Positions 45,868 through 48,360 of a stretch of DNA of 64,000 nt are shown here, in pieces (the stretch's first letter is position 1; each line of letters opens with the position of its first letter). The position numbers and the translations under genes were made by a program. Location of the stretch: assembly GCA_966211585.1 (NCBI GenBank), contig CBIHNU010000013.1, forward strand, positions 36,384 to 100,383. Direction: 5' to 3'. Below the pieces are notes generated by a model that ran no database searches, was not told the DNA's origin, and saw only the letters and a program-made list of their open reading frames with translations. This DNA is from an uncultured Noviherbaspirillum sp. (GTDB taxonomy: Bacteria > Pseudomonadota > Gammaproteobacteria > Burkholderiales > Burkholderiaceae_D).

Positions 45868-46482
45868 CTAACCCGTCAGCTTTCGGAGGTAATCGTCGAT
45901 GTACTGCTGCAGATCCTGCAGGGCAGGCATGTCGAGCAGGAACGCGACATAACCGTGGATGTAGTGCTTTTCGATGTTGAAATCGATTTTCAGTGTCAGC
46001 ACCACGCCGTCCCATTCCTTGCCCGATACGCCGAGGATGTCGTCGCCGGTGCCGACATGGTAGACCGGCAGCGAGCCGTTCAGCTCCTTGCCGGACGCAT
46101 TGGCGAACGAGCCCATGCAGGAATTCAGGATGATGTTGCCGATCTCGCTCATCGCCTCCTGTTCCATCTCGCTCAGCTCTTCCATCGTCAGACTCTGGCC
46201 GACCATCAGGCGCACGATTTCCAGGCTTTTCTCTTCCGGGAACATCAGGAAGGCTTCCGTGTTGAACGCGCCTTCGAAATGCTGCGCGATCGCACAGATG
46301 CGGCGTCCTTCGGTACTGCCCAGCGCCTTCGCGACTTCGGCGCGGCTCTGGAAAGCGATCATCGGCACCGACATCGTCACTTCTTCATTGACGATGCGGC
46401 TCATGGCGGCCGCGGCCCGGCCGACGCCGAGGTTGAAGATTTCAACCAGGGCATCATGCTGGATATCCGTGAGCTGGAACAT
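45868..46482 (-). CDS. cheC: CheC-like protein phosphatase
   Basis: Two ExxN motifs (EIFN, EIGN). 204 aa, coupled to the REC gene. Confidence 0.85.
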   Translation of the reverse strand: MFQLTDIQHDALVEIFNLGVGRAAAAMSRIVNEEVTMSVPMIAFQSRAEVAKALGSTEGRRICAIAQHFEGAFNTEAFLMFPEEKSLEIVRLMVGQSLTMEELSEMEQEAMSEIGNIILNSCMGSFANASGKELNGSLPVYHVGTGDDILGVSGKEWDGVVLTLKIDFNIEKHYIHGYVAFLLDMPALQDLQQYIDDYLRKLTG

Positions 46483-46844
46483 CAGGGGCTTTCGAGAACG
46501 GCGATGATCTGGTCGATGCGGGCTTCGGTAATCGGTTTTTCCGCGAAACTGATTCCCAGCGCGACCGCCCGATCGCGCGTCGCATCCTGCACGTTTGCCG
46601 TCAGCAACGTGATGCGGACGGCCGGATATCGCTGGCGGATTTTTTCGACGGCGGCGAAACCGCCCATGCCGGGCATGTTCAGGTCGAGCATGATCAGGTC
46701 GGGTGCAATGGACTGCAGCTTGTCCAGCGCTTCTTCGCCGCTGGCCGCTTCGGCCACGGTCCAGTCAGGGTGCTTCTGCAGGATGAACTGCCGGGAGAGC
46801 AGGCGTGATACCCGGCTGTCATCCACTACAAGTATCGTTGTCAT
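46482..46844 (-). CDS. Single-domain CheY-like response regulator
   Basis: ILVVDDS, phospho-acceptor in MLDLNMP, LLTA, KP. 120 aa. Confidence 0.9.
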   Translation of the reverse strand: MTTILVVDDSRVSRLLSRQFILQKHPDWTVAEAASGEEALDKLQSIAPDLIMLDLNMPGMGGFAAVEKIRQRYPAVRITLLTANVQDATRDRAVALGISFAEKPITEARIDQIIAVLESP

Positions 46845-46993
46845 TTTTATATCGTTAGGTTCAATATGCGCCAAATAACTCTTCTCGATAAGTCTACCAT
46901 CCGATTGCGGCCCGGTTTTCAAGCTTTCAGAGAAAAACGCGATGGCTTGCCGAGCGTCGCTTAAAATAAGCCAATTCTTTTTTTTCATTCATC

Positions 46994-47665
46994 ATGACTC
47001 AAGACGAACTGAAACAGGCGGTGGCCCGCGCCGCGATCGACTACGTGCCGGAAGGCGAAATCATCGGCGTCGGCACCGGCTCTACCGCCAACTATTTCAT
47101 CGACGAACTCGGCCGCATCAAGGGTCGCATCAAGGGCGCGGTTGCATCGTCGGAAGCGACTGCGGCGCGGCTGAGATCGCACGGCATTGCAGTGCTGGAC
47201 CTGAACGAGGTCGAGTCGATGTCGGTATATATCGATGGCGCCGACGAAATCACATCGCAAGGCGCGATGATCAAGGGCGGCGGCGCTGCGCTGACGCGCG
47301 AGAAAATCGTCGCCTCGGTTGCGCACAAATTCGTCTGCATCGCCGACGGCTCCAAGCTGGTCGGCATGCTCGGCGCGTTTCCGCTGCCGGTGGAGGTGAT
47401 ACCGATGGCGCGCGCGGTGGTAGCGCGCAAGCTGGCGGCACTGGGCGGTGAGCCACGCTTGCGGCTGAAGGACGGTCAGCCGCTGCTGACCGACAATGGC
47501 TGCATGATCATCGATATGGTCGGTTTGAAGATCGCCGACCCGATCGCGCTGGAAGCGCAGATCAACAATATTGTCGGCGTGGTGACGGTCGGGTTGTTCG
47601 CGCAGCGCGGTGCGAACGTTGCGCTGCTGGGTACCGAAGATGGCGTGAAGACGCTGACGTTCTGA
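46994..47665 (+). CDS. rpiA: Ribose-5-phosphate isomerase A
   Basis: [32 protein letters not shown]. Confidence 0.96.
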
Positions 47666-47682
47666 TACGTCGCGCGCCAGGG

Positions 47683-47720
47683 AAAAAGCCTGCCGGTATT
47701 GGTGTCGGCGAGCTTTTTTT
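47683..47720 (+). terminator. Intrinsic terminator after rpiA
   Basis: AAAAAGC-CTGCCG...CGGCGA-GCTTTTTTT, an imperfect stem followed by T7. Confidence 0.65.
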
Positions 47721-47814
47721 CGTGTTGAGAAGGTGCGGTATTTGTCCCGCGGTGCGGGCACGAGATCAATGTATTTTTCCTGAGTGAGAGGTGGGTGAGG
47801 GGCGCGCACGCTCC

Positions 47815-47997
47815 TCACTGTCCCAACGCATCAAGCGGACTCTTCACCCCGCCACTGCCCACTTTTAAAACGTGGGTATAGATCATTGTCGTGGTCACAT
47901 CGGAATGCCCGAGGAGTTCCTGTACTGTTCTGATGTCGTATCCTGTCTGTAATACATGAGTGGTAAACGAATGACGCAAGGTATGCGGTGTTGCCGG
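47815..47997 (-). pseudogene. intI: Integron integrase C-terminal relic (60 codons)
   Basis: Manual translation: [60 protein letters not shown]. It has the tyrosine recombinase H-x-x-R, LGH and Y motifs plus the IntI-type tail [16 protein letters not shown]. No start codon; an in-frame stop lies 6 codons upstream. Confidence 0.9.
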
Positions 47998-48034
47998 GCA
48001 TGGGGCGTTACTTCATAGGTGAAAGTCCAAGTTG

Positions 48035-48069
48035 AAAAGCCCGCTGCGGCATTGCCGGAGCGGGCTTTT
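48035..48069. terminator. Bidirectional intrinsic terminator downstream of yggX
   Basis: AAAAGCCCGCT-N13-AGCGGGCTTTT with additional inner pairing CGGC/GCCG. Confidence 0.85.
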
Positions 48070-48087: not shown

Positions 48088-48360
48088 TTATTCGGTTGGC
48101 GGCACGTAACCGGCGGCGGCGTCCGCACCGGAACCAAAGAAATGATTTTCCATCTGCTGCGCCAGGTATTTGCGGGCGCGCGCATCCGCCAGGTTCAGCC
48201 GGTTTTCATTGACCAGCATGGTCTGATGCTTCAGCCATCCGGCCCAGGCTTCCTTCGACACATTTTCGTAAATCCGCTTGCCGAGCTCGCCCGGGTACGG
48301 CGGGAAGTCCAGTCCTTCAGCGTCCTTGTTCAGTTTGATGCAGTGGACCGTGCGGGCCAT
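48088..48360 (-). CDS. yggX: Fe(II)-trafficking / oxidative damage protection protein
   Basis: [32 protein letters not shown]. Confidence 0.95.

Follow-up and report, generated by a model that had tools for sequence, protein, structure and literature searches.

A probable 3'-terminal remnant of an integron-integrase gene in the rpiA-yggX spacer of an uncultured Noviherbaspirillum species

Introduction

What is the origin of a 60-codon reading frame that lies between the convergent core genes rpiA and yggX of an uncultured Noviherbaspirillum sp. (Burkholderiales)? The frame is part of a window of 64,000 nucleotides (the whole stretch of DNA that was analysed; assembly GCA_966211585.1, contig CBIHNU010000013.1, positions 36,384 to 100,383), to which all coordinates refer unless another contig or locus is named. 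The original prediction read the frame as the relic of an integron-integrase gene (intI), with AT-richer codons than its neighbours and a tail resembling the C-terminus of IntI1, and supposed that a chromosomal integron had once occupied the site. As checks it proposed a profile comparison of IntI with XerC/D and a phylogenetic placement; as evidence against itself it named best matches to XerC/D or phage integrases and the lack of an integron at this locus in any relative.

Of the intI genes in genomes, about a third are pseudogenes, which often belong to another clade than the functional copy and have been interpreted as failed transfers followed by rapid decay (Nemergut et al. 2008, PMC2426708). 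Pseudogene remnants of the IntI_Cterm type were searched for near CALINs by the authors of IntegronFinder (Cury et al. 2016, PMC4889954). Mobile class 1 integrons descended, according to reviews, from a chromosomal integron of Burkholderiales (formerly Betaproteobacteria; PMC8618304). Here we report that the frame very probably represents the 3' end of an intI gene of the IntI1/Burkholderiales clade, which was acquired by horizontal transfer, truncated in the rpiA-yggX spacer and left without function.

Results

Translation gave 60 uninterrupted minus-strand codons and a TGA stop exactly where they had been predicted (Table 1). The frame is open from position 48012, five codons 5' of the fragment, and is preceded there by an in-frame TGA; the spacer between the convergent genes measures 422 bp. 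GC3 of the fragment is 0.53, as against 0.80 in rpiA, 0.74 in yggX, 0.80 in argA and 0.81 in hrpA, which bears out the claim of AT-richer codons and points to a foreign origin.

Table 1. Features of the rpiA-yggX region in the window (positions in nucleotides) and insertions in the corresponding spacer of six other species of the genus.
Feature	Coordinates or length	Strand	Evidence and remarks
rpiA, ribose-5-phosphate isomerase A, left core gene	46994..47665	+	223-aa ORF; PF06026; orthologues 78-87% identical in 42/43 genus genomes
T1, terminator-like hairpin with T7 tail	47680..47721	+	-19.5 kcal/mol, z -2.4; terminator scan; distance to rpiA stop as in the single terminator of relatives
93 nt 3' of the stop codon of the relic, part of the extra DNA	47722..47814	-	no DNA match, significant fold or Rfam match
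Putative intI remnant, last 60 codons + TGA, with box II catalytic residues (HxxR, GH, Y) and IntI-specific tail	47815..47997	-	TIGR02249, 104.8 bits, profile 258-315/315
37 nt between truncation breakpoint (~48000) and T2, with in-frame TGA at 48013-48015	47998..48034	-	no intI1 upstream similarity, SD-like motif or promoter-like site
T2, strong bidirectional terminator hairpin, AAAAGCCCGC...GCGGGCTTTT	48035..48069	.	-25.3 kcal/mol (minus), -28.5 (plus), z ~-5; motif common to the spacers of at least 20 relatives
yggX, Fe(II)-trafficking protein family, right core gene	48088..48360	-	90-aa ORF; PF04362; orthologues 88-97% identical, adjoining rpiA in relatives
Spacer of G003	1.5 kb		361-aa ORF, no Pfam match
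Spacer of G009	~6 kb		RND efflux operon
Spacer of G031	at least 6 kb		RND efflux operon
Spacer of G012	0.86 kb		uncharacterised insert; no IntI trace
Spacer of G028	3.4 kb		uncharacterised insert; no IntI trace
Spacer of G029	at least 2 kb		RtcB-like gene + membrane ORF
Spacer-insertion loci of these six species	L086 1489-2995; L088 1764-7787; L087 1-5960; L085 1-2114; L175 1673-2530; L176 2784-6150

In an NCBIfam profile search, the fragment matched the integron-integrase model TIGR02249 (104.8 bits, E 5.5e-30) and NF011946 (94.9 bits), both alignments covering residues 1-58 up to the final profile position (315/315); Pfam returned only the generic PF00589 (E 3.4e-16). The TIGR02249 and PF00589 values are far beyond chance. 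The XerD and XerC models reached 71.2 and 70.9 bits, in alignments restricted to a partial C-terminus that ended at about residue 43-45, before the IntI-specific tail, and membership of the XerC/XerD equivalogs was rejected. The top solved structure was IntI4 of Vibrio cholerae (VchIntI4, 2a3v; E 2e-19), aligned to residue 57; Xer structures were weaker by at least five orders of magnitude and ended at residue 43-44. The catalytic HxxR, the second His and the nucleophile Tyr are present (HTLRH, LLGH, IYTH) in columns that are 97-100% conserved in 88 IntI tails, and are followed by an IntI-specific tail (VGxxGVxSPLD) that is missing from XerC/D. Since these 14 residues after the catalytic tyrosine are matched by IntI models only, the fragment can be assigned by homology to the tail end of an integron-integrase gene.

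To an origin from XerC/XerD or a phage or ICE integrase we give next to no credence. Box II of tyrosine recombinases is common to these families, as the 71 bits for XerD/XerC reflect, but the IntI models score 24-34 bits higher and alone cover residues 45-58. The genuine xerC and xerD genes of the host genome (on contigs C7 and C23) align to the fragment only up to residue 41-45, and the 80 best genome matches, like the best PDB match, are all IntI. The comparison set beforehand as a check therefore came out in favour of an integron integrase, with the IntI models ahead by about 30 bits.

Among known integrases, the fragment shares 48 of 58 residues (83%) with class 1 IntI1 (WP_000845048, e.g. 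on NZ_LR890753.1), as the predicted likeness to its C-terminus implied, and 51 of 58 (88%) with the IntIs of Rhizobacter and other Burkholderiales MAGs. The chromosomal IntIs of the genus are just 65-78% identical in the tail, and the copy on contig C4 of the same genome, which also falls into a different clade, is 73% identical; a recent duplication of the C4 gene was rejected on these grounds. In a maximum-likelihood tree of 58 columns, a length at which resolution is necessarily poor, the relic grouped with IntI1 and the IntIs of Rhizobacter and Comamonadaceae (support 98/85). This clade was nested in a wider Burkholderiales clade (100/94), and the IntIs of the genus fell into three other clades, separate from it. 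The placement agrees with the original prediction and suggests that the relic belongs to the IntI1/Burkholderiales clade.

The closest tails (84-88%) are those of MAG IntIs of Rhizobacter, Aquabacterium, Ideonella and Rubrivivax (loci L093-L102), which differ from the stub in being full-length, in their GC3 (0.71-0.90 versus 0.53) and in their unrelated flanks. With a best match of 86% in a representative library of 1.84 billion proteins, the true donor lineage appears to be unsampled. Synonymous sites are saturated against every relative (pS 0.7-0.9), which rules out a dS-based dating of the relic. Because of this saturation, a DNA identity to intI1 of about 75% and unrelated downstream DNA, the relic evidently does not stem from a clinical class 1 integron; it has moreover no IRi/Tn402 context, no attI1 and another stop position than IntI1, with which it has in common the 48 tail residues and the supported clade.

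One member of the relic clade (L102, 2053-4632; MAG contig JAZJZP010000114.1) is a full-length IntI with 86% tail identity that lies two genes upstream of an rpiA homologue, in the order purL-orf-intI-membrane protein-rpiA. Side and orientation are unlike those in the window, and a chance association is expected at ~10%, given the neighbours sampled. A class 1 IntI1 (100% identical) was found in a same-genus MAG, G064, on contig C269 (2966 bp; L174, 379-1389); in all likelihood this contig represents a mobile element or was mis-binned, and the gene is not a chromosomal one.

In 23 same-genus genomes, where rpiA and yggX are likewise convergent, just 52-150 bp separate them and include one bidirectional terminator (AAAAAGCCCGC...GCGGGCTTTTT); G064 has the same compact arrangement. 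The greater length of the host spacer therefore argues for an insertion. About 313 bp of extra DNA lie between T1 and T2, each hairpin being at the ancestral distance from its gene; with ancestral-looking outer flanks at both, the exact insertion edges seem blurred. No DNA match to the extra DNA was found in the host genome, 60 relatives or 80 intI loci, which led us to reject a repeated or mobile element (host genome and relatives) and flanks in common with a known intI locus (the 80 loci).

The spacers of six other species have received unrelated, independent insertions (Table 1), so that the convergent rpiA-yggX spacer seems to be a recurrent landing spot for foreign DNA in the genus. At least 20 same-genus genomes share the conserved REC-CheC genes that lie directly upstream of rpiA (45868-46988). 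At the level of the genus this operon is thus no recent insertion, and the landing spot is the downstream spacer alone.

No trace of IntI was found at rpiA-yggX in the 42 other species of the genus. IntI scored above the family cut-off in 17 of 43 genus genomes, at least 15 further loci were fragmentary or contained stops, and a comparison of coordinates placed none of the IntI loci of the genus near rpiA. The supposed chromosomal integron at this site is thus not borne out: relatives have neither an integron nor an IntI trace there, so that decay in place of a resident integron is undocumented, the host has no attI or attC, and the flanks match nothing. A reading in which the stub is all that is left of a resident IntI1-clade integron in the chromosome, with the rpiA neighbourhood as a recurrent home for this clade (cf. 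L102), is unlikely. Of the two outcomes named in advance as adverse, the lack of an integron in relatives was thus observed, whereas the best matches proved to be IntI.

Homology to intI1 and 80 intI loci, at the DNA or protein level, is limited to 47821-48003, which places the breakpoint at about 48000. Approximately 255 of the 315 profile positions are lost, leaving ~18% of the gene; with this 5' part went the first catalytic Arg and Lys as well as the additional domain specific to IntI. This domain (the IntI patch, between patches II and III) is a criterion of both Nemergut et al. (2008, PMC2426708) and Cury et al. (2016, PMC4889954); in the stub, everything before profile position 256 is missing, and the 90 nt upstream are unrecognisable. 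With 58 of 315 positions and 104.8 bits, as against a curated cut-off of 265, the fragment falls short of a full-length IntI. No orphan 5' part of intI was found elsewhere in the 96.8%-complete assembly, which favours deletion over rearrangement and led us to rule out a split gene.

Functional IntIs of comparable identity differ from each other by a mean pN of 0.135, a value not exceeded by the pN between the relic and its nearest tails (0.085). Two conserved columns deviate: the Ala of RHSFATH, present in 88 of 88 tails, is replaced by Thr, and a 98%-conserved Leu by Val. The terminal branch of the relic in the 58-column tree (0.26) is three times the median (0.084). The open frame and the low pN imply that the truncation is recent or that some constraint may persist; our own reading is that of a fairly recent truncation, followed by modest drift.

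Within the extra DNA, a promoter scan revealed no promoter-like site, and none of the in-frame starts is preceded by a Shine-Dalgarno-like motif. The spacer had no match to Rfam or other ncRNA, and the extra DNA contains no attC-like fold on either strand (z -1.2 to +0.2) and no attI remnant, the attI side of the relic being only 37 nt long. Lacking a promoter, a start signal and a recombination site, and with terminators on both sides, the stub is presumably silent and functionless; T2 would insulate it against read-through from yggX. That it was kept for a function, either as a small protein (e.g. 54 aa from TTG 47979) or as a cis element modulating recombinases or neighbouring genes, would accord with the open frame, the intact catalytic R, H and Y, and the lack of excess nonsynonymous change, but the stub is absent from all 42 other species, its invariant Ala is replaced, and, judging from the architecture of 2a3v, 60 residues of box II alone could not fold into a recombinase domain. 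Together with the missing promoter and SD motif and the flanking terminators, these points make retention for a function very improbable.

The inner edges of the extra DNA carry a direct repeat with 8 of 9 matching positions, GTTGAGAAG (47724-47732), just inside T1, and GTTGAAAAG (48031-48039), which overlaps the start of T2; it may be what remains of a target duplication, or have no meaning. Integrases are documented in a preprint as able to insert cassettes at GTT secondary sites (bioRxiv 10.1101/2022.09.11.507474), and the extra DNA might on this basis be an off-target gene cassette or else an assembly chimera. We give little credence to either: the cassette is opposed by the lack of an attC-like fold, and the repeat by our estimate that it would arise by chance at about p 0.05. 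The same sequence is contained in a 455-kb ENA metagenome contig (24.7x coverage) with core genes on either side and can therefore not be regarded as an assembly artefact. A search for population variation gave only contigs of the same organism as other carriers of the exact RpiA, all 100% identical.

A complete integron, In0 or CALIN (sensu Cury et al. 2016), which requires an intact intI and/or at least two attC, with attI adjoining the 5' end of intI, was rejected for the spacer: the intI is truncated, and there is no attC-like fold and no match to an RNA or structure family. The stub thus has only the features that identify the ancestry of an IntI; it is not a functional IntI and belongs to no integron category. 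A heuristic R''/R' hairpin scan of the whole genome gave cluster counts equal to chance and one dense cluster inside RND pump genes, and missed the known attC on C4 that served as positive control.

This C4 locus (C4:175627-176567; L009 9613-10624, minus) is a second intI, of the type found in the genus (348.7 bits; GC3 0.55), with a frameshift and TGA and TAA stops. A LexA-box-like site, CTGT-N8-ACAG, lies in its promoter region, and the remainder of this decaying integron (L009 10625-12707) has two low-GC cassette-like ORFs, a DUF6678 protein and a 160-aa ORF without Pfam match, bounded by GTTAGAA / TTCTAAC cores. A truncated IS110-family transposase gene is apparently inserted in the second attC. 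Another C-terminal-only intI remnant of the genus (G066:C29; L084 3660-4052, minus; profile 256-315) is fused to an unrelated N-terminal reading frame of 70 aa; four small ORFs on the same strand 5' of it (L084 3868-5952), one of them cupin-like, look like surviving cassettes.

Discussion

The origin of the frame that we consider very probable, a truncated intI of foreign descent, can be outlined as follows, although the order of events is inferred. A DNA segment with an intI of the IntI1 clade would have entered the insertion-tolerant rpiA-yggX spacer by horizontal transfer. A later deletion with a breakpoint at ~48000 would then have taken the 5' four-fifths of the gene together with everything on the attI side (attI, Pc and cassettes, if any), leaving ~313 bp of foreign DNA between two terminator hairpins.

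Whether the lost part amounted to a complete integron is, in our estimate, an even call. Given that this spacer takes up foreign DNA of various kinds, the fragment may just as well have been truncated already when it came in with other foreign DNA, i.e., as a passenger in an island or transposon remnant that was mostly deleted later, and no integron would then have functioned there. The spacers of six other species contain unrelated cargo (an RND operon, an RtcB-like gene, unknown ORFs), no resemblance to an intI flank, attI or attC is seen on either side of the stub, and fragmentary intI pieces are frequent in the genus. On the other hand, the 313 bp show no sign of another element (IS ends, repeats elsewhere in the genome and other coding remnants are all lacking), and a pre-truncated passenger needs as many events as decay in place. 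We therefore regard the passenger as a tentative explanation, to be ranked somewhat below an integron that worked at the site.

On the preferred reading of a truncated foreign intI, the stub is another example of a well-documented kind of decayed intI, unusually short and without cassettes. Like the pseudo-integrons described previously (PMC2426708, PMC4889954), it is a decayed, non-functional intI in a proteobacterial chromosome that is not found in close relatives, and it fits the category of failed transfers of Nemergut et al., as its clade of origin is unlike that of the other intI of the genome. It is more extreme than the usual pseudogenes with frameshifts or stops in that only the last 60 codons are left. 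It also differs from the IntI_Cterm remnants associated with CALINs: there is no cassette array beside it, so that standard integron annotation would miss it. The integron on C4 likewise has an inactivated intI (frameshift and stops) of low GC3 (0.55), but this gene belongs to the other, genus-typical IntI clade (73% tail identity), is nearly full length and retains its promoter region, cassette-like ORFs and an IS110-family insertion, whereas the stub has neither promoter nor cassettes.

The finding is of little importance in itself and implies no new mechanism. Short intI stubs of this kind go unnoticed by gene callers as well as by integron finders. In principle, such relics could give a signal with intI1 primers or probes that target the conserved 3' end. 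If the stub did descend from a resident integron of the IntI1 clade, it would contribute one piece of evidence on the whereabouts of class 1 integron ancestors prior to their capture by Tn402. At least two integron integrases, from separate lineages, appear to have been acquired and then inactivated by this genome, which fits a frequent gain, decay and loss of integrons.
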